DNA of 12,965 bases, taken from contig JBKHIT010000092.1 of assembly GCA_046538485.1 (NCBI GenBank), forward strand, positions 1 through 12,965, given 5' to 3'. Below, piece by piece: positions 1-12,965 of this stretch (its first letter is position 1; each line of letters opens with the position of its first letter). The translations under genes were made by a program, and so were the position numbers. The notes beneath the pieces are model-generated. The model saw nothing but the letters and a program-made list of their open reading frames with translations. It made no database searches and was not told where the DNA came from. The stretch comes from Candidatus Brocadiia bacterium (GTDB lineage Bacteria > Planctomycetota > Brocadiia > SM23-32).

Positions 1-81
1 GTGATGTATAGGCTCGGCTCCGGCCGGAAGTTGCTCCAGCGCCTGCTCCAGCGCCGTAATCCGTTCACTAACAACTATCAC
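1..81 (-). CDS. 5' end of an unidentified gene running off the left edge (partial)
   Basis: GTG at 81-79, preceded by purine-rich GAGGGATAG. The frame stays open to position 1 (MIVVSERITALEQALEQLPAGAEPIHH...). Too short to assign a function. Confidence 0.45.
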   Translation of the reverse strand, partial: MIVVSERITALEQALEQLPAGAEPIHH

Positions 82-99
82 CTATCCCTCGCTGTCCTA

Positions 100-112
100 T
101 GGTCCGACCCCG
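100..112. repeat. REP-like motif copy 1 (TGGTCCGACCCCG)
   Basis: Exact 13-bp match to 696-708; the 11-bp core also occurs at 781-791. Contains the internal palindrome GGTC-C-GACC. Confidence 0.6.
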
Positions 113-151
113 ACTTACTTCTCAGTAACATTGCGTATCCTTGTTTTGGCT

Positions 152-196
152 TTTTTGTCAACTTTATGTCAACCGTCTTTATTATTTTATGTCAAC
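152..196. promoter_or_regulatory. Three 11-bp direct repeats TTT(A/T)TGTCAAC (GTTGACA(T/A)AAA on minus), candidate operator/promoter region
   Basis: Copies at 152-162, 163-173 and 186-196 in AT-rich DNA upstream of the minus-strand gene starting at 81. Each contains a TTGACA hexamer on minus. Confidence 0.5.
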
Positions 197-398
197 AAGG
201 CCATCCCATGCCGGAGAGCTTTCATGCACTGGTCGGATAGAGATTTTAGAGTTAAGGACGGTTAAACCGGAAGAACCATTTTTTTGAGCTCGTCGTGTCA
301 TTGCCTCATCTGCCCCGCAGCATACCACAGATTAATCCTCGCTCAAAGATGGATGCGCCGGCAGGGCTGGCCGGAGATCAGCGACCTGAGGTTGTTGG

Positions 399-586
399 TT
401 TCTCGTTGATCGTTTCTCGTTTTTCGTTCCTCGTCGTCCCGCCGTCGCTGACTTCTGATCTCCGACCTCTGTCCATTGCCCCTGTCTTCGCAACTTCATA
501 GTTTCCCAGCTTCCTATCAGTCCTCTGACCTCTGACTTCTGACGTCTGGTCTCTGATCACCGATAACAGATCACCGATCACCAGTC
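399..586. repeat. Degenerate short tandem repeat region (7-mers and 8-mers)
   Basis: TTTCTCG-like x5 (399-433), CTGACTT-like x4 (448-475), TTCNNANY 8-mers x4 (487-518), and TCTGACC/ACCGATC-like 7-mers x10 (517-586). Confidence 0.8.
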
Positions 587-695
587 CTTTGCCGTCCCCT
601 GCTTAGCGCCATTTTTCAGGAGGTGAAAAACGCGTCTAACGCCGTTATACGCACCCTTTGTTGGGCGTAACTGTTGACTCAACTTGGAGATATCG

Positions 696-708
696 TGGTC
701 CGACCCCG
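696..708. repeat. REP-like motif copy 2 (TGGTCCGACCCCG)
   Basis: Exact direct repeat of 100-112. Confidence 0.6.
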
Positions 709-774
709 TATACCGTCCCAACTATCAACGGCCCTCTGTCCCTGTTTTGTCGCATCCTATTACTGAGACAGACC

Positions 775-798
775 ATCCTGTGGTCCGACCCATAGGAT
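775..798. repeat. REP-like motif copy 3 within a hairpin (ATCCTGTGG-TCCGAC-CCATAGGAT)
   Basis: 9-bp stem with one G-T pair, overlapping the TGGTCCGACCC core. Lies just 3' of the last minus-strand island ORF (stop at 810). Confidence 0.55.
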
Positions 799-809
799 TT
801 CATAATGGA

Positions 810-986
810 TCAATGAAATACCTCTTTCTGCAAACATCTCAAGGACTCCTTAGCTAGTTTTTCAGCCTTTTTTCTCGGGTTTGATACTTCTGAAGACTCC
901 TCTTTACTATAATTCTTGGGTAAATATTTTTTCTGAACTTCCGCAACTGACCGCAATTTTTTTGCGTCTTTCTTCTCTTTCTCCAT
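810..986 (-). CDS. Small basic hypothetical protein (58 aa, MEKEKKDAKKLRSV...)
   Basis: ATG at 986 lies 7 nt after the stop of the 430-aa gene, with AAGGA about 10 nt upstream. AT-rich like its neighbour; Lys/Glu-rich. The longer 1076 start overlaps the upstream gene and is less likely. Confidence 0.5.
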   Translation of the reverse strand: MEKEKKDAKKLRSVAEVQKKYLPKNYSKEESSEVSNPRKKAEKLAKESLRCLQKEVFH

Positions 987-993
987 GATAATT

Positions 994-2286
994 TCATCCT
1001 TGATAATATTTCGCAAGAAAGTGCACGTTCTTCTCTGCTTCAAAATAATGTTTTCTGTCAATCCAAACAAGCCCATCCCCTTTAGAGATTACTGCTACAT
1101 CAATTGGCCCGCCAACAGTCTCCCTATCGGTAGTAAAACGTCTCTTGATGGAAGTTAGATTCACTAAAGCTTCAGCAAGCTCTGCAAGTTGCTCTTTCGG
1201 TAAATTAGCAACTACATTTATTACTGGTCCAATGTGACTTTCCCGCCGATAAGCCTGTGCCCCCTCCTGGTAATTTTGAACCAATTTATCTGTTTGTTTC
1301 TCTAATCTATCAATAAGGTCTTGTTTGTCCTGCTCATCAATTGCGTCAATAGAATCAAGAATCATTTTGGGATAGTCAGATAACAATCTTTGGATGTACT
1401 TATCTATAAAACCCTTAAGTTCTGGATCGATCCCCTCCATAAACGTGTGGATAACATCCTTCTGGGCAAATGGAACGATGCATGCCGTATTTTCAAATTC
1501 CACACCACGTGGTTCCGTAATTTCATAGAACAGCTTTTCATTCGCTAAGAGATACATTCGTAATTCCACAAGTGAGGGAAATAAATCCTTTTCCCCAAAT
1601 CCTGCTACTACAATCCCGGAATTATAATTGAGAACTCCTGCTTTCATAAGTCCTTCTGCCGCAATCTTTTTTAGCCGATTATATGAACGTTGAGATATGG
1701 GCAGTTCCTCGAAAACAGATGTTATCTTTTCTTCTATAAGGTCATGGTAAGTCAATCGAAAACTTCGGACATCGCTTGGATCAACATCATGCAAAAGCGG
1801 CGCAGACTCTACGGTCTCCCAACGAGCACCAACCACATCTGTCACAAGTCGTTTAAGTTTCTGTTCAGAGATAGAACCGTTTTCGTCAATGTAGGTACGA
1901 ATACCACAAATAATCTCTGTTTTAATATCTTCATACAAGGCTGAAATGCGAATCGACGTATGCTTCTTTTGCTGCTGAGAAGGGAAAAATTGATCTTTTG
2001 TTTCACTCAGGTAATTAATGAATTCCTTCGCATATTCTTCGACTGTGGCGCAGCATGTGTCCCCTATTTGCTCTCTGTACTGTTTTATTATAGTTTCCCA
2101 CGGTACGCCCATGAAAGAAGCTTGACTGTAAATCATAATCCCGACAGGAACGTCATAAGAAAGTGAAAACACTTTACTTGCCGAGGGGAATATCTTTTGT
2201 TGTCCTCCACCATAACGGACAGTCACTGCGCTGTCCGCGGCCAATGCAACTGCATGCCGATTCATTATAGCGATTTCTGTTGTCAT
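994..2286 (-). CDS. Hypothetical protein with proteasome-beta/HslV-like (Ntn-hydrolase, T1-type) signature
   Basis: After Met removal: T1-TEIAIMNRHAVALAA-D17-SAVT...K37-VF. Internal GIVVAGFG and C-terminal TVGGPIDVAVISK. These match the Thr1/Asp17/Lys33 and SGGxxDVAVI patterns of 20S beta subunits, with long helical-looking insertions. Confidence 0.7.
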   Translation of the reverse strand: MTTEIAIMNRHAVALAADSAVTVRYGGGQQKIFPSASKVFSLSYDVPVGIMIYSQASFMGVPWETIIKQYREQIGDTCCATVEEYAKEFINYLSETKDQFFPSQQQKKHTSIRISALYEDIKTEIICGIRTYIDENGSISEQKLKRLVTDVVGARWETVESAPLLHDVDPSDVRSFRLTYHDLIEEKITSVFEELPISQRSYNRLKKIAAEGLMKAGVLNYNSGIVVAGFGEKDLFPSLVELRMYLLANEKLFYEITEPRGVEFENTACIVPFAQKDVIHTFMEGIDPELKGFIDKYIQRLLSDYPKMILDSIDAIDEQDKQDLIDRLEKQTDKLVQNYQEGAQAYRRESHIGPVINVVANLPKEQLAELAEALVNLTSIKRRFTTDRETVGGPIDVAVISKGDGLVWIDRKHYFEAEKNVHFLAKYYQG

Positions 2287-2456
2287 TATTCTATTATCCC
2301 ATATCCCTTGAGGTTGACATCTCCAATTTAGCTAGCATGCGTCAATTTACATAATCTTTCTTGAGGCCGCAACCACTCTCTTAACATGACGCCACTGCGA
2401 CCACACCCCACTAAGGGGGACTATAACAATAATCGTAATTGTGAAATGGTTTTGGC

Positions 2457-4235
2457 TTACAGGCCGTTCCCTTCCGACCAATCGAAGGACTCACCTACTC
2501 GATCTTCTATTTCTTGTTGAATTGCCGCCTTGCGAGCACTCAAAAACGCCTCATAATCATTTTCAAGCATGGCCTTGAAACCGGCCTCATTGATTAGATG
2601 CTCTTTAAGGAGCCTCTTCACACCCTGCTTCCCGTCGGTATGCTCCTCAATCATCTGCGGCACATATTCACCCGGCAACTGGTCTCTATATTTGAATCGG
2701 TTTACTTTAGCCTCGATTACAGTACGATTGAGCACATTATCCCTTGCTGTTCTGTCTTCATATTTTTTGCCGTTGATCCCTTTCTTGAGTTGAGAAGCGG
2801 GGAATATATGGTGGTCATCAGCCTTGTGGAGGCTTATGCTTTCAAGAGTTCCAAAATCCCTCGCCCCAGCAAGCAACAAAAGACTCATGACCGCTCTATA
2901 CTTTCCTCCACGGTACACGGACTTGAGGTCCAGTTCGACCGGTATTCGGTTTAGTCCTTCGGAAATGGAATTAGGAGGATCGCCACCATTAAGCCAAGAC
3001 GTCAACTGCTTCATGTCTTGGTAAAGCTTCGTATCGGAACTCCCACTGTATCGAGCTGAAAACACCGATATCCAATACCACTTGTAAACTTTTTTCAGCG
3101 CCTCTCCGTCCGGGAAGCTGCCATTTGTTTCGGCATGATGGATCATGTTGGCCAACGTCGGAATCAGAGCCGTGTATGGGAAACCAAATTTCCGGCTAAC
3201 CCCTAAACCGCCAGCCTGGGGTGATACCGCTTTTTCCAGCATACGATCCATCATGCCGGCGGTATTCTCCCAGTCCTCTGCAAAACTTTCCGGGGCAAGT
3301 TGGCGGAGATTTCTATCTTTACACTCGCCCCCTCGATGTAAAGCAAGCGTTTTCAACATCAGCTCACGAAGCCTGGTTTCTCCTATCATGTCGGAGCAGG
3401 TGGCGAGACGGGGATAGTCTTCGTCGTCAATAATGTCCTCCCACAAATCCCTCAGACGAATATCCCGGGTCCATAGTCGGGCTGTTAATATGTCAAAAAC
3501 TCCCAGTTCAAGGCCTTGTGTATTTATCCTTTCAAAAGTCTGAACGACCTTGTCTTCCGGAGTGTCGGCATTCAATTGAATGACCGGTATTTTGTAACTG
3601 CGGAATACTTCTGTGTTGTCCTCAAACAAATCAACGTCATCTTTGGACAAGTCCGCACGGGATTCAGCAAGGGCTTCCATCCCTCGTCTCCAATCTTTGA
3701 AAATGTCCTTGCTTTTAAAAATGGTAAATGGAATAAGCCCTTTTTTGATTTGGAATGCCAGGTCGTTATCGATCAGTCTTTGGCTGGATTTCCAGTTCCA
3801 GCGCCGCCACGATATGGCATCTTCGTCAAGGTCCCCAGCCAAAACTTTTTCCCAATCAAGACAAAACAGTTGAGCATACTTCGTATTAGCAAGTGGGATT
3901 TCCGGGGCGGTAACCGCATAATAGATACTTGAAATCCGTTGCTGCCCATCCAAAATCATCTGCATACTAAACGGATCCACACCTTGAGTTGGTGCTCCGT
4001 CCACCTGCCTTGGGGGGAATGGAGATTCGGTGGTTTCCCCTGTCACAACCGGAAGGGAGAGAAGTGTGTTGATGTAATAACCATTAAGAATGCTCTCCAG
4101 CAACTTGCCCACCTGATGCGTCGGCCAAACAAAATCCCTCTGAAAATCAGGAAGCACTATCTCGCCGTCCTCAATTTGCTGTATCAACGATTGAACGTCC
4201 ACTTGCTTGAGTCCCACTTCTAATTGGAGCGGCAT
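2457..4235 (-). CDS. GmrSD-family (DUF262 + C-terminal HNH/DUF1524-like) putative modification-dependent restriction endonuclease
   Basis: DUF262 motifs LPDFQRDFVW, ILDGQQR and FERINTQG; C-terminal DDHHIFP...DNVLNR. AAAGGA Shine-Dalgarno 7 nt before the ATG at 4235, preferred over the TTG at 4241. Confidence 0.88.
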   Translation of the reverse strand: MPLQLEVGLKQVDVQSLIQQIEDGEIVLPDFQRDFVWPTHQVGKLLESILNGYYINTLLSLPVVTGETTESPFPPRQVDGAPTQGVDPFSMQMILDGQQRISSIYYAVTAPEIPLANTKYAQLFCLDWEKVLAGDLDEDAISWRRWNWKSSQRLIDNDLAFQIKKGLIPFTIFKSKDIFKDWRRGMEALAESRADLSKDDVDLFEDNTEVFRSYKIPVIQLNADTPEDKVVQTFERINTQGLELGVFDILTARLWTRDIRLRDLWEDIIDDEDYPRLATCSDMIGETRLRELMLKTLALHRGGECKDRNLRQLAPESFAEDWENTAGMMDRMLEKAVSPQAGGLGVSRKFGFPYTALIPTLANMIHHAETNGSFPDGEALKKVYKWYWISVFSARYSGSSDTKLYQDMKQLTSWLNGGDPPNSISEGLNRIPVELDLKSVYRGGKYRAVMSLLLLAGARDFGTLESISLHKADDHHIFPASQLKKGINGKKYEDRTARDNVLNRTVIEAKVNRFKYRDQLPGEYVPQMIEEHTDGKQGVKRLLKEHLINEAGFKAMLENDYEAFLSARKAAIQQEIEDRVGESFDWSEGNGL

Positions 4236-4311
4236 TGTCAATTCCTTTCTGAATTACCAAATACGGTCAAATGTAACAAAAGACAAGGAGGATGTACTTC
4301 CCTTCATTGCT

Positions 4312-7300
4312 TCACCCAACCCGCCTCTCACACAACACCTCCGCCTGTTTGAGCACGGTTGTCGTGGCTGCTTCGCGTTTGTCCGGGGGATAACCGTATT
4401 TTCGGAGAATGTTCTTCACCAGGATCCGCATCTGGGCGCGTGTGCTGTCACGCAATGCCCAGTCAATCGTCGTGTTGCGATGCACGGCTTCCACCAGCTC
4501 GTTGGCTATGTCTCTCAGAGTGTCATCACCAAGGACTTCGACGGCACTTTCGTTCTCCGCCAGTGCATCGTAGAAGGCGATTTCTTCATCGGATAATCCC
4601 AAATCTTCGCCCCGCTCACGTGCTTTGCGCATCTCTTTAGCCATCTCGATCAACTCTTCAACAACCTGAGCCGCTTCGATGCTGCGGTTCTTATACTTGC
4701 GGATCGTGCTCTCCAGCATCTCGGAGAATGAACGGGCTTTGACCACGTTCGTTTTCCGGGTCTCTTTAATCTCGTCGGATAGGAGTTTTTCCAGCAGCTC
4801 CACGGCCAGGTTCTTCTGCTCCATCCCCTTTACTTCCATCAAAAACTCGTCCGAGATGATGGATATGTTCGGCTTCTCAAGCCCCACCGCTCCGAATATA
4901 TCGGTGACCTCGGTGCTGGCAATGGCTTTCGATACCAACTGACGCAAGGCTGTATCGATCTCTTGCCGTTCGGCCTGTTCGTCTCCAGCGGTATTCTTTT
5001 TGATGACCGTCGATACTTCCTGAAAGAATTTCAACTCATCCCGCACCTCGTCGGCCTCCTCGCACGGCACTGCAAGAGCAAAAGCCTTTGAGAAGTCACG
5101 CACCGCGGAATAGAACCTCTCCTTCCCGTTTTCCAGCCCGGAGAGAAAATCGATGGTCTCGCCAATAGCGCGCAGACGTTTCTCGTCCTGGGTATGTAGA
5201 TATTCCCTGTAATCGAACCCATGCAGGATGCCACGAATAATATCATGCGCCTCCAGCATGGCTTTAACGGCCTTTTCCTGATCGACCGCTGGCTGCCCGC
5301 GGCCCCCGCTGTTGGTGTAGTTTTGGAGCGCCTTTTTCAGCGGCTGAGCCATACCGATGTAATCCACGACACGGCCCGCGGGTTTGTCCTTGAACACCCG
5401 ATTCACCCGCGCAATCGCCTGCATCAGCGTATGTCCTTTCATGGGTTTATCCACATACATCGTATGCAAACACGGGCAGTCGAACCCCGTAAGCCACATA
5501 TCACACACAATAACCACTTTGAGCGGGTCATCGGGATCTTTAAACCGCCTGGCGGCCTGTTCCCTTTCTCCTTTGCTCAACAAATATTTCTGCCATTCTT
5601 CAGGATCGTCCGCGCTTCCGGACATAACAACTTTGATCTCTCCATCATTAATGTCCGGCGCAAACCACTGCGGACGAAGACGACGTATCTGCTCGGCCAG
5701 GTCCACACACACGCGTCGGCTCATCCCCACAATCATCGCCTTACCTTCCAGCACCTCCAGCCGGTCCTCAAAATGCTCCACGAAGTCCGACGCCAACAAC
5801 TCCAATCGTTCTTCGGCCCCCACCACCGCTTCCATCTGCGTCCATCGCGTTTTCGCCCGCTGGCGCTCGCGTTCCAGCTCGGTTTCCCCCAGCACCTCCT
5901 CCACTTCCTCGTCGATGTATTCCTGAATTTCCTCCTCAAGCTCAACACCTATGATCCGCCCCTCGTAGTAGATGGGCACCGTTGCCTCGTCCTCCACCGC
6001 CCGCTGAATATCGTAAGTATCGATGTATTCACCAAACACCGATCGGGTGTTACGATCCTCCAGTTCAATGGGCGTTCCCGTGAAACCCACGAACGAGGCG
6101 TTTGGTAATGCGTCGCGCATGTGGCGGGCCAGACCATCGATAAATCCGTACTGGCTACGGTGCGCTTCATCGGCTATCACCACGACGTTACTGCGCTCCG
6201 AGAGCAGCGGATGTTCGACTTCCCCGTCCATCGGGAAAAACTTCTGGATGGTGGTAAAAACCACCCCGCCACCGGCCACCTGCAGGCATTCTCGCAGATG
6301 CTCCCGGCTCTCCGCCTGCACCGGCGTTTGACGCAACAAATCACTGCAGCGTGAAAAGGTGCCAAAAAGCTGATCGTCCAGATCGTTACGGTCGGTGATC
6401 ACCACCAGTGTGGGGTTTTCCATGGCGGGATGCCGTATGATTTTACCGGCGTAAAAGACCATTGACAGGCTTTTACCACTGCCCTGCGTGTGCCAGATCA
6501 CCCCGATACGCTGGTCTCCAAAATCCTCCCGCCCCGGATCATAGGTCGCTTCATCATCCTTGATCTTCAGCGGGTTTTTCTCATCCATCTTCGGGAACGG
6601 CCCCTCGGCCTCAGGATCGCCATCGATCCCGCATGCCTGCAGGGTGCATCCCACGGCCTTATTGACGGCAAAATACTGATGGTAGAGCGCAAGTTTTTTG
6701 GACAGTTGCACGCCGTTGTCCTCAAAAACCATGAAGTTGCGCACCAGGTCGATAAACCGGGGTTTTCGGAAGACGGCTTTCACGAGCACTTCCAGTTCCA
6801 GGAGTCCGGGCGGAGCCACGTTCATACCGTCGAGCGATCGCCACCGTTTCATCCATTCCCACGGGCTGGTGAGGGTGCCCAGACGGGCATTATAGCCGTC
6901 GGCGATGACGAGCAGTTCGTTGAATCGAAACAGATCGGGAACGCTGTCTTCATAATTGTGGAGCTGGCGATACGCGTTGTGGATATTCGCGTTTTCGGAG
7001 GCCGGATTTTTCAGTTCAAATATCGCCAGCGGCATCCCATTGACGAAAACGACGATATCGGCCCGGCGTGTCTGGCGATTGCCCTGCACGGTGAACTGGT
7101 TGACGACCATCCATTCGTTCGCGTCCGGATCATTCGTCTCCAGGAGGTGCGCGGTCTCATAATCAACCCCCCCGTCGTCAGCCTCGCATTCAACGGTCAC
7201 CCCATCGGTCAGCAAACGGTGGAAGCCGCGGTTATCCTGGGTGAGATCCGGGCTCTCACTTTCCTCGACTTTCCGGACGACGCGGTTCACCGCATCGGGG

Positions 7301-7491
7301 CTCAACTCCGGGTTGATCCGCCGCACGGCATCGCGCAATCGGTCCGACAACACCACCTGCCGATAGTTATCCCGCGCCGGCCGGTTTCCATCGGGACTGA
7401 TATCCGGCCCATGCACGACTTCATATCCCAGACCACGGAACCAGTCGAGGGCGGTTTGTTCAATTGTGCTCTCTTTGGTACCGGTATTCAT
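4312..7491 (-). CDS. hsdR: Type I restriction enzyme, restriction subunit R
   Basis: 1059 aa. Nuclease motif ADIVVFVNG...FELK, Walker [38 protein letters not shown] and the typical C-terminal ...IDW...YGYPPD region. Confidence 0.97.
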
Positions 7492-7524
7492 CTGGATATT
7501 CCCGCTTTTTTCATTTTTTCTCCC

Positions 7525-7552
7525 TTGACAAGTGCGCTATAACTCTCATAAT
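7525..7552 (+). promoter_or_regulatory. Sigma70-like promoter pointing away from hsdR, towards the structured RNA
   Basis: Perfect TTGACA (7525-7530), 16-nt spacer, CATAAT (7547-7552). No credible plus-strand protein gene follows. Confidence 0.5.
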
Positions 7553-7557
7553 AGAAT

Positions 7558-7626
7558 TAGCTCATCCGCCATGCGCGGAAGGAGTATCGACGCCGTTTCT
7601 CTTTTCAGAGGAGCGGCGTCAGTGAT
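7558..7626 (+). ncRNA. Candidate structured small RNA (DUF3800-associated RNA-like)
   Basis: Hairpin TCCGC-CATGC-GCGGA (7565-7579) and 14-bp stem GACGCCGTTTCTCT-TTTC-AGAGGAGCGGCGTC (7589-7620). Its two non-Watson-Crick positions are U-G wobbles only on the plus strand. Immediately downstream of a promoter and adjacent to a DUF3800 gene pair. Ends are approximate. Confidence 0.55.
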
Positions 7627-8100
7627 TTAAGGGGATCTGTCACGGTCTTTCCGCAGTTTTCGACATGTGTGCTTGCGGTTGGTTGGGTAAGCAGTAATAA
7701 AAAAATAGTAGTCTCCTCTGTCGCCCAAAACGACCAGATATTGTTCGCCATACCATACACAAAAACGTTCTTCCCCACGTCGCTGTGTCCGCCAAACTGC
7801 GACCCTTGGATCATCTGCGTGTTCCAATACTGCCCGTGGCCAAGCGATTCTTTCACACCGTCTCATATCGGGTTTGCGTTCTTCGTCTTCCTTCTGCTGA
7901 ATTATGTGCCAGAAAGCAGGCTCCTTCCCATCGTCCAAAGGCCCCGTTTGGCATGCCACATCCGCTCCGCGAAACTGAGGACGGGAATGTATGAAATCCC
8001 TTTTGAATACATCGTAGAGTGCCTCGACGTATGCTGGCCAGTTCCCACCATAGTCATCGAAATGGATCTGATCCGGTAACCAATCTGGGCGTTCAGTCAT
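7627..8100 (-). CDS. Conserved-looking hypothetical partner of DUF3800; putative BECR-fold (RelE/barnase-like) RNase
   Basis: 157 aa, overlaps the DUF3800 stop by 8 nt. FWHII...RRCERIAW helical region, then beta-meander YLVVL...YFFITAYP and a basic tail. The fold call is inference. Confidence 0.7.
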   Translation of the reverse strand: MTERPDWLPDQIHFDDYGGNWPAYVEALYDVFKRDFIHSRPQFRGADVACQTGPLDDGKEPAFWHIIQQKEDEERKPDMRRCERIAWPRAVLEHADDPRVAVWRTQRRGEERFCVWYGEQYLVVLGDRGDYYFFITAYPTNRKHTCRKLRKDRDRSP

Positions 8101-8860
8101 AGTTGCGCGCCCCCGGTTCCCATCGCAACAGGTTGACCTTCGGCTCCCGCAGCCAAGTCGATTGTGTCAAATTCTTCCCTGATCTTTTCTGAATCCTCTG
8201 CACAACGGCCACTTTACCGGAGTTCGGCTCCTGTTGCCGATCAGCTAGATCTCCCCAGCACATACGGTTATGATAACCGACTGCGCCCATGAGCAGGTCC
8301 GTCAGTTGCATCAACTCACTCTCGTCGGAGCGAATTTGCTGTAATCGGTGTATGATCGTGCCCACCCGATCATATTGGCTGTTCCGCAGCACATCCTGCA
8401 ATTTCTGCCGCTTTTCTTCGCTCCGAGTATCCTTGATGTCGAGATAAATGTTGTAGCGATGTCTCGGGTCAATAACCGGCTCCAACAATGTGAACAACAT
8501 CTTGTAGTACCAGGTGTCGTGTGTCTGTCGAAACACCTCGTGATCGAGAGCCTGCTTATCGATGATGACTCCACGGAAATGCAGGTCGTCATCATCAAAA
8601 AAATAGTCCACCAGCGCAAGATAAAAGCCCTTTTTGGACTCAGACACCTTCGACCACTTACTCTCGAACGGAACGCCCTCTTCAGGTTGAAGGTCCTCAG
8701 GCTTCAGCAGGCCATACTGCATTTTCAGTTCCCGAACCCTTTCCGACACTTCCCGTACGCAATCAAGCGGACACCACACCGCACCAAGAACCATGACGGG
8801 AATGCCATCATTCTCCAAATGACAGCTCTCATCACAATAGATATTGTAGAGTTCAGCCAT
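8093..8860 (-). CDS. DUF3800 family protein (RNase H-like fold)
   Basis: N-terminal YNIYCDESCHL, ESKW, IYLD, and C-terminal S..SELMQLTDLLMGAV, which are hallmark DUF3800 acidic motifs. Start is ATG 8860 or GTG 8863. Confidence 0.88.
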   Translation of the reverse strand: MAELYNIYCDESCHLENDGIPVMVLGAVWCPLDCVREVSERVRELKMQYGLLKPEDLQPEEGVPFESKWSKVSESKKGFYLALVDYFFDDDDLHFRGVIIDKQALDHEVFRQTHDTWYYKMLFTLLEPVIDPRHRYNIYLDIKDTRSEEKRQKLQDVLRNSQYDRVGTIIHRLQQIRSDESELMQLTDLLMGAVGYHNRMCWGDLADRQQEPNSGKVAVVQRIQKRSGKNLTQSTWLREPKVNLLRWEPGARNYD

Positions 8861-8906
8861 CACCAGACCCCTTCATACTGATTTCCTAATCGCCAGAGAT
8901 GACGCG

Positions 8907-9407
8907 TCATGATTGCTCCTCTTCTATTTCTTCAGCCGGAAAGATGGTTGTCAGGTCAGCTTCAACATCCACCCCATAGCCTGTACATAGCCGCGCCAGG
9001 TGCAGGCCGAAGATGGCTCTCAGTTCACCCAAGGCCTCCCACATACGAGCTTCCTTCGGATAAACCATTCTCCGGTTGCTATCCGGATGGTCCATCCGTT
9101 CCAGAAACTTGCGGCAGGCAGCGCGCATGGCTCGTATGGGAGCTGTAAGATGCTTGTCTTCGGGACAATCTTGGAGAATATCTGTCAGCTCCTGACGCAT
9201 TTCTATAACAGACTTCTCCACCCAAGGGCCATACTCCATGTGACGTTCAGCATATAGCGCCCGCCGGTCTTCAAGAAAGGCAATCAGCCGCCGCACAATG
9301 TCGCGCTTGTTCTCCGGTGGATTCCAACTGACGCCGAAAACAGGGGTACTTATGCCAGTAATTCGTCTGGCAATATCAGCAACTGGTATCTTTGATCGCC
9401 AGGTCAT
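8907..9407 (-). CDS. Hypothetical protein, DUF6650-like (166 aa)
   Basis: ATG at 9407 has a GGAGGA SD and overlaps the upstream stop (ATGA). Motifs RITGISTPVFGVSW, FLEDRRALY, RAMRAACRKFL and ALGELR are recalled from this family. Confidence 0.7.
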   Translation of the reverse strand: MTWRSKIPVADIARRITGISTPVFGVSWNPPENKRDIVRRLIAFLEDRRALYAERHMEYGPWVEKSVIEMRQELTDILQDCPEDKHLTAPIRAMRAACRKFLERMDHPDSNRRMVYPKEARMWEALGELRAIFGLHLARLCTGYGVDVEADLTTIFPAEEIEEEQS

Positions 9408-9991
9408 GGCATCTTCCTCCACGCTATGCGGTAGTTCCACGCATCGACCCATTCGGGGTATGCAACCCACATCTGATCGATAGCCTCTGGCACGTCTGCT
9501 TCGGCAAACATGCGCTCGACATCTTCATCCAACACCAAAGTATCATCCCCTATCAACTGGAGCAGCACAATATGTACCGCTTCCGGGTAGGGACGTAATT
9601 TCTCGGGGACGCTGGTAAGTGTTTTCTGCAGTGCGCCAGCAAAGCCCTGCAATGCCTCCTCCCTCGCTTCAAGACTCAAGTTCTCCGGCAGGATCTCTTC
9701 GTAATAGCCGTTTGGCCCAGTCTTCTCCTTTGCCCTCTGATGCCAGTGGACATGATTCTCGATGTAGTCGCAGGGCCAGACAACGCTTTTCCGCTCAATT
9801 ACCATTTGTCCCCCATCGCTGCCCTCCAAAAGCACTTCCGGCTCTTTTCGGTCGGCATTGCGGACATCAAGACAAACCTCCCGGCGATAGGCTGTTTCCT
9901 TCTCCTCGTTGTAAAGCTCCACGAACTTCCGGATAAAGCGCCACTCGCATCGATCCTGAAGGCGAAAGCGACTATGGCAGTGAAAAATCAC
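9404..9991 (-). CDS. Hypothetical protein, possible divergent PD-(D/E)XK nuclease
   Basis: GTGA overlap with the phosphatase stop and GGAGG SD; ATGA overlap with the next gene. Motif PEVLL-(x8)-VIERK. Confidence 0.6.
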
Positions 9992-10497
9992 TGAGCACCT
10001 CCCTCAGCAGTTACGTATTCTTCCCAGTGTTCATCCAAAAAACCTCTTATGCCGTTTTTCGGGCAATATGCTGGGTATACTTCTCTGAAAGCCTCCTCGG
10101 CGGCTTCCAGGGAACAGGAGGGTATAGCGTCCGTGTAAGCGGCAAGATACAGCAAACCGAGAGATGGGGAACGCGATTGACCCAGGTTGCAGTGCACGAG
10201 CACTTGAAATCCAGCGTTGAGTCCCTCACGCGCAAAACTGAGTGCACTGTCGACGATCTCCTTCGGGATATAATCTGGATCATGGGCGTCTACGAAATTC
10301 AAAAAAAGCCTGTTTCCGCGCTCTGCCACGAGGTATTCGGGATGGTCTTTGGGGGCACCGCGACCCTTATAACCCAAAAGCTGCCGGTGGTACGGCTCTT
10401 TACAAGCATGAACAACCCTCCAGCCTTCTTGGCCCTTAACGGTACGCTCATAGTCAATCTCGTTCCCGACGTAAAGTCCCGGATATATCTCTATCAT
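9988..10497 (-). CDS. Dual-specificity/tyrosine phosphatase family protein
   Basis: Catalytic loop [12 protein letters not shown] (HCxxGxSRS), N-terminal EIYPGLYVG, and candidate general-acid Asp in NFVDA. ATGA overlap with the hsdS stop. Confidence 0.88.
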
Positions 10498-11843
10498 TGA
10501 ACAATCTCCTCAGACAATCCAACATCGGGAACGCGAACTTTACCCGAGAGCAGGTTCGGAAGCAACGCATCACGGGATTTAGTTAGGGTACGGATCTCCA
10601 GCTCATTATGAATTTGCCGGCCTATTGGCGGAGCGATGGCTTTTCCCATCGTGTTCAGTAGTTCCTCTGATGGAACAAGAACTTTTGCCTCACTCAAATG
10701 TGCACGTTTTATGTGCCCCATAGTGGTGGCCTTATCGGCGGCAATGCGCTGGAATCTTTCAAGATGTTCAACCGTCCAAAGATAGTAGAACCATTTCGGG
10801 AACCTGACCGAAGACACTTTGAAAAGATGCTGATTAAGCACGCCACGCCCACCTGTCCACAGTTTTACGAGGAGACTGCCGGACCATGAAAAAATAACAT
10901 CTCCGTCCTCAATAATGTATTTATCTGGAACATCCAGTGACGCCCGATCTGTGTTGTCAGAAAAACCGTCTCGGAGTTCCCTGATTTTGATCACCGGGAG
11001 AGATTCTTCGTCGCCTTCGGCTCTATACCTCTGCCAGGCAGTCCCATTCAAATAATCCGCAATTTCATCCAGCGCCCTAATTTCCCACCCCACCGGTATC
11101 GGCCCTTGGTCACTCTCCTCAAAAGCAGCTGGAAAATGCTCCGCCATATCATCAGCTACCACTGGATTCCCCGCGTCAAGCGCCTTCCGCCGTGCCGCGG
11201 CGCGATCGCCGAACTCCTCGGGGATGGGATTGCCCGCGCGGACGGCATTGTCGATGACGGGATCGAAATCCACGAACCAGCTTTTGAAAAGAGTCCGAGC
11301 GGTTGATTCCAGGGTTTTGTTCATCCGGCGATTGAGCTCGATCTTGTCGTCGAACGTCCTCAATATTTTAGAAATTTTTTCTTGTTCATCAAGATCTGGT
11401 ACCAGCACCTCAAAATCTGATAACAATCCTTTACTGACGTTTGGAAATGTAGAACCAGTTGCAGCCTTGAGCAATGCGGGCAAATAAAGTTCCAACAATC
11501 CTCGAAGAAAATGATTATATCTGAGCCCTTTTTTATGACGCAGTGCTGCAAGTCCTCGCCCTATTGCGTATTCCCTATCTGCCCAGTTCATCCGGCCTGT
11601 CGACGATCCTCTCACGCAAAACAAGAGATCACCAGGTTCCGCCCGTTTCTTTGGATCGTCTGTGTATTGTTCAGGCTGAGGATGATGTGGGCCAAATTCC
11701 GTAGGGCCATTCAATAGCGGCAATCCAATTTCTTCCTCAGAACACATTTCTCCTTTTGGGGACCGCCCCATTTTGATGTTGGCAATATTTTTGATTTTCA
11801 CCTTTTGTTTTTGCTCTACGATAGATAAATCTCCACGGTGCAA
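10494..11843 (-). CDS. hsdS: Type I restriction-modification specificity subunit S (start uncertain)
   Basis: Two target-recognition domains separated by the conserved PDLDEQEKI...[15 protein letters not shown]...LFKSWFVDF...IPVGWE; C-terminal [15 protein letters not shown]. Confidence 0.95.
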
Positions 11844-11931
11844 TTGCTATTCACTGGTACTCCGACCGATCCCCGGTCCGGGTGTGAGCAGGCAAAACCA
11901 GTACAACGGCATAAAACACACATATCAGATA

Positions 11932-12390
11932 TCAAAAAGTAAGAGTGGTGCGGTAACAGCGTTTTTCCGCGTAGTCGTCGTCCCATTTCAGCTGTATCTG
12001 AAACGGTGGATTGCATCCTAGGTTTATTCCAAGAAGGCACGAGGCCTCGGAGCCAGAGCCCAAAACCTCTGGCAAATTCTCTCCTTGCAGCATGACTTCA
12101 TGTTCCGAGGAATCTATACCGTCAATGAACACGACAATATTGCGTGCTTCCGATTGCCCTTCATTGATAATTGCCATTCGCCATGAGTTTTTATCGGTCT
12201 TTCGTAATTCTGTCCTGAGCGTTGCCTGTTGTGATTTCGCACGTCGAGCATCTGCACGACTTTGTTCAATCTTCAGCAAGCGGGACTGGGTCTTATTTGA
12301 TTTTTGATTAGCTAGCCAACTCAGTATGGTGGCAATGATGGATATTAATACCGAACCTAACGCGATTATAGTCGAAAACTTGACACTCAT
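11932..12390 (-). CDS. Single-pass membrane hypothetical protein
   Basis: Hydrophobic N-terminus (IIALGSVLISIIATILSWLA), a charged helical stalk, then a beta-rich domain (IINEGQSEARNI). Co-oriented with the operon. Confidence 0.7.
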   Translation of the reverse strand: MSVKFSTIIALGSVLISIIATILSWLANQKSNKTQSRLLKIEQSRADARRAKSQQATLRTELRKTDKNSWRMAIINEGQSEARNIVVFIDGIDSSEHEVMLQGENLPEVLGSGSEASCLLGINLGCNPPFQIQLKWDDDYAEKRCYRTTLTF

Positions 12391-12422
12391 TGTTTTTTAT
12401 TACCTGAGTCGCTCAGCATTCT

Positions 12423-12932
12423 CTATAGCTCTTTCAAATCATCGCATTCCCCAGTTAGCTCACCCTCTTGGAAACACTGGACGTCTTCAATGCATCCATT
12501 GTCCACGTCAAACTTCAAAAAAAGGCCCACACGGTAGTCATATTGCTCCCCAGTAAACGCAGCCAATTTTGCTTCATCCTTCTCGTCCCCTATTTCCGAG
12601 GTAGTTTTCTTGATCTCTATGACCAACAGATTGTGCTTGTCGTTACCGCGCTTATGCACAACGATATCCGGGTAGACAGTTTTCGCATCAGTATCGCGCA
12701 CATCACATTTTATATCCCCATAACCGTCATAGAAAAGTTTCTTCGGTTCCTCGACATGACGATTGTATTCACAGTCGACATCCCACGAATTGCCAAACTC
12801 TTTCTGCATGTGTTCAGCGAGTTTGTGTGACAGAGAACGCTCATTCACATCCCGTTCCAACAGGTAGATATCCTCCCGATAAAGGGCCAATAACGCCATC
12901 TTCACTTTTTCATATATCTTTGAGTTTTCCAT
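12423..12932 (-). CDS. Small PD-(D/E)XK-superfamily putative nuclease
   Basis: 169 aa; NERSLSHKLA, VDCEYNR, YPDIVVH...LLVIEIKK and DEAKL give an E...PD...ExK catalytic pattern. Confidence 0.75.
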   Translation of the reverse strand: MENSKIYEKVKMALLALYREDIYLLERDVNERSLSHKLAEHMQKEFGNSWDVDCEYNRHVEEPKKLFYDGYGDIKCDVRDTDAKTVYPDIVVHKRGNDKHNLLVIEIKKTTSEIGDEKDEAKLAAFTGEQYDYRVGLFLKFDVDNGCIEDVQCFQEGELTGECDDLKEL

Positions 12933-12965
12933 TTTTCCAATTAGCTATCGGCCATTCTTTCTCCA

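Follow-up and report, generated by a model that had tools for sequence, protein, structure and literature searches.

What does a stand-alone protein with the active site of a proteasome subunit do at the end of a bacterial defence island, and what is the tiny basic protein encoded a few nucleotides behind it? The question is raised by a stretch of 12,965 nucleotides (nt; hereafter the window) from a Candidatus Brocadiia bacterium of the Planctomycetota (assembly GCA_046538485.1, contig JBKHIT010000092.1, positions 1 to 12,965), in which all the genes lie on the minus strand and the last two encode proteins of 430 and 58 amino acids. An earlier note, made from the letters of the window, had seen in the larger one a candidate threonine peptidase of the proteasome beta type with a small partner. 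Judged by their composition and distribution, the two genes are best described as a self-contained, horizontally acquired and mobile cassette. We put at roughly one in two the probability that this cassette is a mobile threonine peptidase under the control of its small partner, acting in genetic conflict, i.e. in addiction, abortive infection or defence.

Sequence comparison confirms the large open reading frame (ORF) as a real gene rather than a chance one. Among 8000 scored candidates, 7848 match its product at E<=1e-3, and an exhaustive search gave matches in 5159 clusters at 50% identity, with members of the family found in metagenome-assembled genomes and isolates of both bacteria and archaea. 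The protein is matched over its full length by phrog_5990 (E 2.6e-116), an entry of PHROGs with function unknown; there was no family match in Pfam (E<=0.01) and nothing meaningful in NCBIfam. The translation begins with M-T-T and ends at a TGA stop (996-994). Asp18 corresponds to mature position 17 and Lys38, within S-K-V-F, to mature position 37; the motif GIVVAGFG is found at residues 224-231 and TVGGPIDVAVISKGDG at 390-405. The protein is acidic, with an isoelectric point (pI) of 5.2 and a charge of about -14, the median pI of the enzyme across the family being 6.3.

An AlphaFold2 model was built on an alignment of 30 homologues, picked among the 120 listed for their long contigs or source names, and reached a mean predicted local distance difference test score (pLDDT) of 80.6 and a predicted template modelling score of 0.76. 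Its core strands fall in three blocks (residues 4-54, 223-274 and 395-408), accompanied by the helices H1 (63-74), H2 (82-95), H3 (276-284) and H4 (364-385). Foldseek placed 20S beta subunits on top (E 1e-4, probability 1.00) among 28 matches at E<=1e-3. Exhaustive structural alignment (VIA) against 48,161 solved chains gave the same result, with a Z of 13.6 for 20S beta (185 of 193 residues aligned, root-mean-square deviation 3.5, spanning residues 1-412 of the model), followed by Anbu (12.2), BPH (10.4), HslV (9.8) and connectase (9.1, 148 residues aligned). More distant N-terminal nucleophile (Ntn) hydrolases, namely penicillin V acylase, bile salt hydrolase and acid ceramidase, appear at Z 7-9. 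In addition, several mature chains have their residue 1 superposed on residue 2 of the model. The model predicts for the large protein an alpha-beta-beta-alpha Ntn core of the 20S-beta/HslV type.

Two long helical insertions interrupt this core. The first (about 97-212) is placed after H1/H2 and the second (288-361) is a long helical hairpin between H3 and H4. This arrangement fits PMI-4 ('Proteasome homolog with Multiple Insertions 4'), one of the families in the catalogue of proteasome homologues of Fuchs, Alva and Lupas (2021, Bioinformatics, PMC8665760). Folded alone, insertion 1 (residues 96-216) gave a confident five-helix domain (pLDDT 94.6), for which no convincing relative was found among the 48,161 solved chains: 5 of them reach Z>=5, the best being a C-domain of the TetR family (Z 5.5, 80 residues aligned), and the best Foldseek match had an E of 0.63. 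As the domain resembles no solved one, we assign to it no sensor or ligand-binding role, and the sensor or gate proposed in the earlier note is a conjecture. By sequence, the large protein alone retrieved nothing below E 0.14 from the PDB. With the family profile the top rows belonged to cullin-3 (E 0.007-0.05, residues 84-175 in the insertion region), and Thermoplasma 20S beta was matched at E 0.11 on residues 389-406. The likeness of residues 84-175 (about 1762-2037 of the window) to the N-terminal repeats of cullin-3 was rejected as a chance helical similarity; the fold searches with the isolated insertion list no cullins.

The catalytic residues were counted in 150 proteins listed by the exhaustive search, one per cluster at 50% identity. 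Thr2 is kept in 144 of them, the other six being cut at the N-terminus, and in all 30 sequences of the smaller alignment. In 140 of these 144 relatives the threonine is preceded by the methionine alone, which indicates that there is no propeptide and that removal of the methionine would expose the nucleophile. Asp18 is kept in 148 of the 150 relatives, with one further Glu, and Lys38 also in 148. A local hhalign alignment of residues 2-96 with HslV pairs Thr2, Asp18 and Lys38 with T1, D17 and K33 respectively and is non-significant (E 0.06). Position 54, a Gly in 127 of the 150 relatives and a Ser in the protein of the window, is tentatively the equivalent of the oxyanion-hole glycine (Gly47), an assignment based on a non-significant local alignment and on residue numbering. 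The large protein was therefore described correctly in the earlier note as regards the features read from the letters (the M-T-T start, Asp17, the Lys37 of SKVF, GIVVAGFG, the terminal motif and the length), the Ntn fold, the two long helical insertions and the residues of the Thr1/Asp17/Lys33 type, which are conserved.

The small gene starts with an ATG at 986-984, after a gap of 7 nt from the stop of the large gene. We have compared this arrangement in 80 homologous loci, taken from contigs of one genome per species; of 600 pattern matches, 487 encode a relative, and the 80 best of these were selected. Numerous phyla of bacteria and archaea are represented among them. With an iterated profile seeded with the 58-residue product of the window, a homologue was detected (E<=1e-3) immediately behind the large gene in 76 of these loci. 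The final profile, run over all the six-frame pieces of the selected loci (15,391 in total), matched those 76 pieces and no others. The E-values of the last round are partly circular; several loci were already matched at about 1e-8 to 1e-6 in the first round with a single query. Among the four loci with no match, two (L058 and L073) have a broken large gene and another one has an ORF of 69 codons with a similar-looking motif overlapping the stop of the large gene. No other neighbour is conserved over the 80 loci, the next largest neighbour cluster being found in 6 of them at varying positions. Comparison of the loci indicates that the small ORF, whose conservation the earlier note had proposed as a check, is a genuine conserved partner of the large gene.

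The partners are between 52 and 111 residues long (median 60, with 73 of 74 within 50-80) and basic (median pI 9.6; above 9 in 55 of 69). Their common pattern is a Lys/Arg-rich N-terminus, the motif S-x-x-E-aromatic-E-K-x-aromatic-aromatic-P, a variable linker and G-x-x-L-A-x-E-S-L-x-x-I. The protein of the window shows the Lys-rich N-terminus, the S-x-x-E-aromatic...aromatic-aromatic-Pro motif and the L-A-x-E-S-L helix motif. In an alignment of this protein with 68 of the 74 partners with an assigned start (six long or atypical ones were omitted), the column counts include Ser/Thr (67 of 69), Glu (58 of 69) and Pro23 (66 of 69). Among the 63 loci in which the large gene is intact and the start of the small ORF could be assigned, this start overlaps the end of the large gene in 45 and lies 0-30 nt beyond it in 18, the choice of start being heuristic. 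Searches of the small protein against Pfam, PADLOC, NCBIfam and PHROG gave no family match and the protein atlas no usable one; a profile search of a large protein database, limited by its word index, gave 11 proteins among 225 candidates. As far as searches of open-access papers and bioRxiv show, this conserved mini-partner is unpublished.

Several data suggest that the two proteins bind each other. Their charges are complementary in the pair of the window, about -14 for the enzyme and about +7 for the partner. Complex prediction with both alignments gave scores of 0.59, 0.58 and 0.57 (median 0.58), the best of three controls reaching 0.04; the runs agree in at least 85% of the contacts and the partner has a pLDDT of at least 64. 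The mark used for such predictions is reached by 116 of 157 solved complexes and by 2 of 215 mismatched pairs, and in the range up to 0.60 by only 18 of the 157 solved complexes together with both passing mismatches. Binding of the small protein to the large one is likely because of the complementary charges and the near-universal coupling of the genes, taken together with this prediction.

The distribution of the cassette is that of a mobile element. It coincides with a block of low G+C content, and the host genome (5.19 Mb in 143 contigs, 88% complete) carries it in one copy and has also a separate, ordinary gene of the HslV type. Among 201 sampled genomes of the phylum, a match was found in three (E<=1e-10), which include the host and one that keeps nothing else than a C-terminal remnant (residues 350-429), and none of the 8 genomes of the same class that were searched has one. 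Homologues with 30-34% identity were found in 13 of 50,697 phage records and others in 10 of 72,556 plasmid records. In a lambdoid phage of Providencia the homologue lies between the antiterminator Q/dam genes and the holin gene, and in satellites of Streptococcus it is the next-to-last gene, at the cargo end, after the small terminase and a regulator. In the phage and satellite records examined, a coding sequence of 58 or 55 codons starts 2-6 nt after the homologue; these small products are not recognised by the partner profile (E above 1), and an aromatic...Pro motif can be seen in them by eye.

The large gene is intact in 67 of the 80 loci, with 400-470 codons and a Met-Thr start, and in five others it is truncated at a contig end or its match begins at a later residue. 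The remaining eight have a premature stop or frameshift, and a small-partner match follows six of these (the exceptions are L058 and L073). The interrupted genes may be pseudogenes, assembly errors or cases of recoding. No tRNA gene was found around the cassette in the window, nor any Rfam match (E<=0.1) in positions 1-2600, nor convincing flanking repeats. In some genomes the cassette is wedged within operons, between CdhC and CdhD of CODH/ACS (L026) or between subunits I and c of a V-ATPase (L006), and in others it stands between two like genes, i.e. two CO_dh epsilon-type genes (L053) or two UbiA genes (L003). Such positions, between genes of one operon or between gene copies, look like the insertion of a selfish cassette.

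As a mechanism, removal of the initiator methionine would leave Thr2 as a free N-terminal nucleophile assisted by Asp18 and Lys38. The helical insertions of the model occupy the sites that line the pore and make the ring-ring contacts in 20S, HslV and BPH, and for this reason the protein would probably form no classical closed double ring and need no AAA+ unfoldase. Neither an AAA+ unfoldase nor an alpha-subunit gene adjoins the large gene here, as the earlier note had already remarked, and none is conserved over the 80 loci. The enzyme may be an active threonine peptidase working without unfoldase and probably without a closed ring. The 58-residue basic protein, made by coupled translation, would bind the acidic enzyme and most likely be its private regulator, either keeping the peptidase inactive or directing it. 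The module would then be an accessory conflict element, of the toxin-antitoxin (TA), abortive-infection (Abi) or defence type, and not a housekeeping protease. To the fold, the conservation of the catalytic residues, the near-universal pairing and the mobility documented above, an anti-phage role is added here as a reasonable hypothesis. More doubtful, and proposed only tentatively, is that the PMI-4 enzyme forms with its mini-partner a two-component conflict system, widespread and unrecognised until now, the first TA/Abi module of the proteasome family, in which the 58-residue protein would plug or restrain the threonine protease and its loss or displacement during phage attack would unleash proteolysis.

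The earlier note had placed the pair inside a defence island. This stands for the present copy, since the window is a real composite defence island, but among the homologues the association with defence genes looks real, modest and not robust. We have called ORFs of at least 80 codons in the 80 loci and scanned the 142 nearest neighbours, on either side of the cassette, with Pfam and PADLOC. Neighbours of the restriction-modification type and related ones include Eco57I-type methylases in three loci, N6/N4 methylases in three others, GmrSD and ThiF-JAB (two loci each) and HsdS, Fic and MazE (one locus each). At E<=1e-10 PADLOC matched 20 of the 142 neighbour ORFs, spread over 18 of the 80 loci. 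A rough control was provided by 83 ORFs on arbitrarily chosen stretches, 16 in number, from as many other genomes of the phylum. Counted per protein, where neighbours within one locus are not independent, the enrichment is 20/142 against 2/83 (odds ratio 6.6, Fisher p=0.004); counted per locus, it is 18/80 against 2/16 control regions and non-significant (p=0.51). So modest an association would be more in keeping with a small selfish cassette than with a core defence gene. As a separate observation, in two loci of Solirubrobacterales (L059 and L065) the cassette is followed by a fused JAB-ThiF (E1-like) gene (positions 7476-8916), with a helix-turn-helix regulator on the other side; this neighbourhood of the ubiquitin-like conjugation type is limited to these two related genomes.

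A number of observations weigh against a conflict function or against the enzymology on which it depends. Besides the per-locus result and a control that does not come from the genomes of the loci themselves, 62 of the 80 loci have no nearest neighbour of PADLOC type, three of the PADLOC matches are probably generic (a kinase, a small methyltransferase and a radical-SAM enzyme), and many cassettes have housekeeping neighbours such as CTP synthase, UbiA, RecR and subunits of CODH/ACS and V-ATPase. No named defence or TA model matches either protein, the only row from PADLOC-DB 2.0 being ZorA for the large one (E 0.0044, helical residues 184-347). The complex prediction counts as weak support and returned no interface. 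The small protein has no recognisable DNA-binding domain and the large gene comes first, both of which are atypical for type II antitoxins. The enzyme of the window has Ser54 in place of Gly at the probable oxyanion-hole position. Finally, homology to HslV or the proteasome is undetectable at the sequence level, both in Pfam (PF00227 included) and by hhalign against 18 HslV sequences (from 21 loci, two being left out by a motif filter and one for a weak match), which gave a probability of 0.3% with the separate alignment pieces also non-significant, so that the residue equivalences rest on the fold alignment and on position. This last point is not disqualifying, since homologues of this kind were detected only below significance in the 2021 catalogue too (PMC8665760).

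The alternative that survives best, although rather unlikely, is that the cassette encodes a normal protease of the cell, engaged in protein quality control or regulation, and that the small protein is its own adaptor or assembly factor, helping in assembly or in the delivery of substrates; the site of this copy in a defence island would then be incidental. The loci with no defence-type nearest neighbour, the non-significant enrichment per locus and the copies inside metabolic operons (L026, L006) would all agree with it, as would the fact that the 2021 catalogue reports no telling gene context for any of the new proteasome homologues (PMC8665760). An ordinary cellular protease is nevertheless not expected to have so extremely uneven a distribution (3 of the 201 genomes sampled in the phylum, none of the 8 of the same class), to differ in composition from its flanks, to be carried on phages, satellites and plasmids and to have its large gene interrupted in 8 of 80 loci, and the placement between genes of unrelated operons looks like selfish insertion and not like functional linkage.

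We consider improbable a second alternative, a ligase or transpeptidase similar to connectase, which would cut the small partner, e.g. at its aromatic-aromatic-Pro motif, and ligate a piece of it onto itself or onto a different protein, so that the partner would serve as a substrate or tag. Connectase, a monomeric and sequence-specific ligase, is among the fold matches, and the partner has a near-invariant Pro after two aromatic residues; in the recognition motif of connectase the cut is made in front of a Pro. Ring assembly may also be ruled out by the insertions (PMC8665760). On the other side, H1/H2 are kept (63-95) and in place of a two-helix lid between S3 and S4 there is a loop, the classical beta subunits outscore connectase (13.6 against 9.1), and a conserved helix-breaking Pro is equally expected in a purely structural partner. 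That the Ntn fold is a catalytically dead platform for the helical insertions, like the proteasome alpha subunits, is very improbable, because in spite of Ser54 and the undetectable similarity to active subunits the three catalytic residues are kept in 144, 148 and 148 of 150 relatives, a Thr directly after Met in 140 of 144 is hard to explain without catalysis, 23 of the 150 relatives likewise have no Gly at position 54, and the oxyanion hole uses the backbone NH, which a Ser need not abolish.

The features of the window are collected in Table 1. Some 3 kb of other cargo stand between the genes hsdR and hsdS, and there is no hsdM in the window. In 4.4 kb the consensus scan for promoters gave 8 sites, where shuffled sequences would give 6.0, so that the match in front of the large gene is weak evidence when taken alone. 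Downstream of the cassette, positions 1-809 contain no ORF with a family. Two exact minus-strand copies of GGGTCGGACCAYRGGA, with a near-palindromic core, are found there 3' of the small ORF (95-110 and 776-791), and the 12-nt core occurs again at 695-706; the two exact copies are the only ones in the 5.19-Mb genome. An apparently non-coding segment of the same region (448-562) contains three imperfect direct repeats with a 24-nt unit of the CTGACNTCTGA type and 75-79% identity to the reference copy.

Table 1. Position of the two-gene cassette, its signals and the other genes of the window.
Feature	Position	Strand	Basis or remark
Small gene, 58-residue basic partner protein, pI 9.7	810..986	(-)	sequence; homologue directly downstream in 76/80 loci
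Large gene, 430-residue proteasome-like Ntn hydrolase, PMI-4-type	994..2286	(-)	translation, AlphaFold2 model, fold matches, residue conservation, phrog_5990
Shine-Dalgarno-like AAGGA for the small ORF	997..1001	(-)	direct reading; within the last codons of the large gene, 10 nt 5' of the ATG
Sigma-70-like promoter match, ATGTCA, 16-nt spacer, TG-GATAAT	2293..2320	(-)	consensus scan; just 5' of the large gene ATG
Low-G+C block coinciding with both genes	801..2300	.	composition profile; 0.39-0.41 against 0.46-0.60 in the flanks
GmrSD gene, directly upstream of the large gene	2457-4241	(-)	Pfam/PADLOC scans
Type I HsdR	4312-7491	(-)	
PDC-M04B	7627-8100	(-)	candidate defence system
PDC-M04A, DUF3800	8093-8863	(-)	candidate defence system
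DUF6650 gene	8907-9470	(-)	
195-residue ORF without family	9404-9991	(-)	
Dual-specificity-phosphatase-like ORF	9988-10497	(-)	below Pfam cut-off
Type I HsdS	10494-11843	(-)	
152-residue orphan	11932-12390	(-)	
PD-Lambda-3_A-like gene	12423-12932	(-)	

With 5159 clusters at 50% identity, spread over bacteria, archaea and phages, the family is a very large one, and it keeps a complete active site of the proteasome type. The near-universal and translationally coupled mini-partner is the first clue from gene context, and defines a two-protein unit that could be co-expressed, assayed and studied for its structure. If the cassette is indeed a conflict module, the proteasome fold would join the enzyme classes of microbial immunity or addiction, and if instead it works as a connectase-like ligase it might become a new tool for protein engineering. 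For the window itself, the last two genes of the composite defence island would be explained as recently acquired cargo.

Among the known systems, the large protein shares with 20S beta, HslV, BPH and Anbu the Ntn fold, the N-terminal Thr and the Asp and Lys at matching positions. It differs from them in size, being about double, with helical insertions of some 190 residues in total where the pore loop and the ring contacts would be, and in having no propeptide, no alpha subunit and no ATPase of the HslU, PAN or Mpa type nearby. Ring-forming subunits are compact, with about 180-250 residues, stack into double rings and usually have an AAA+ partner or alpha subunits, which is not what is found for this protein of 430 residues. 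Connectase, an archaeal protein ligase, resembles it in being a stand-alone proteasome homologue that works without unfoldase and acts on one specific partner protein (PMC7980362), and is matched in fold (Z 9.1). In contrast to the large protein, which keeps H1/H2, connectase lacks these helices and carries a lid of two helices between S3 and S4 (PMC8665760). At this place our model has only a short low-confidence loop between strands (24-30) and no lid of the connectase type. The substrate of connectase is not known to be encoded beside it.

The protease-containing TA and Abi modules are also compact and mobile two-gene cassettes, with translational coupling and a small charged partner, and they share with the present one the occurrence in defence islands, prophage cargo loci, satellites and plasmids and the occasional broken copies. 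A difference is that the small protein described here has no recognisable DNA-binding fold or family. To our knowledge, no Ntn threonine hydrolase belongs to the TA or Abi systems described so far. The open-access and bioRxiv literature searched gave no work on the family after the 2021 catalogue, and nothing on proteasome homologues in phage defence.

The most direct comparison is with the catalogue itself (PMC8665760). There, PMI-3 and PMI-4 are both described with long insertions after H1/H2 and between H3 and H4, which according to the authors may prevent the assembly of rings and double rings. PMI-3 has 28 sequences and PMI-4 has 501, from many bacterial groups and with archaea and phages ticked. 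The large protein has the core with Thr1, Asp17 and Lys33, no propeptide and no associated AAA+ ATPase, both insertions are present at the corresponding places of the model (97-212 and 288-361), and its relatives are abundant and come from bacteria and archaea as well as from phages or satellites (13 records). It fits PMI-4, and what separates it from PMI-3 is this abundance, breadth and presence in phages and not a comparison with the reference sequences (HDY66466.1 and OGZ26396.1). The enzyme family was catalogued already in 2021, with no function attached to it. As for its surroundings, the paper mentions no partner protein and gives no gene context or co-occurrence, whereas here a small basic partner follows the enzyme in 76 of 80 loci.

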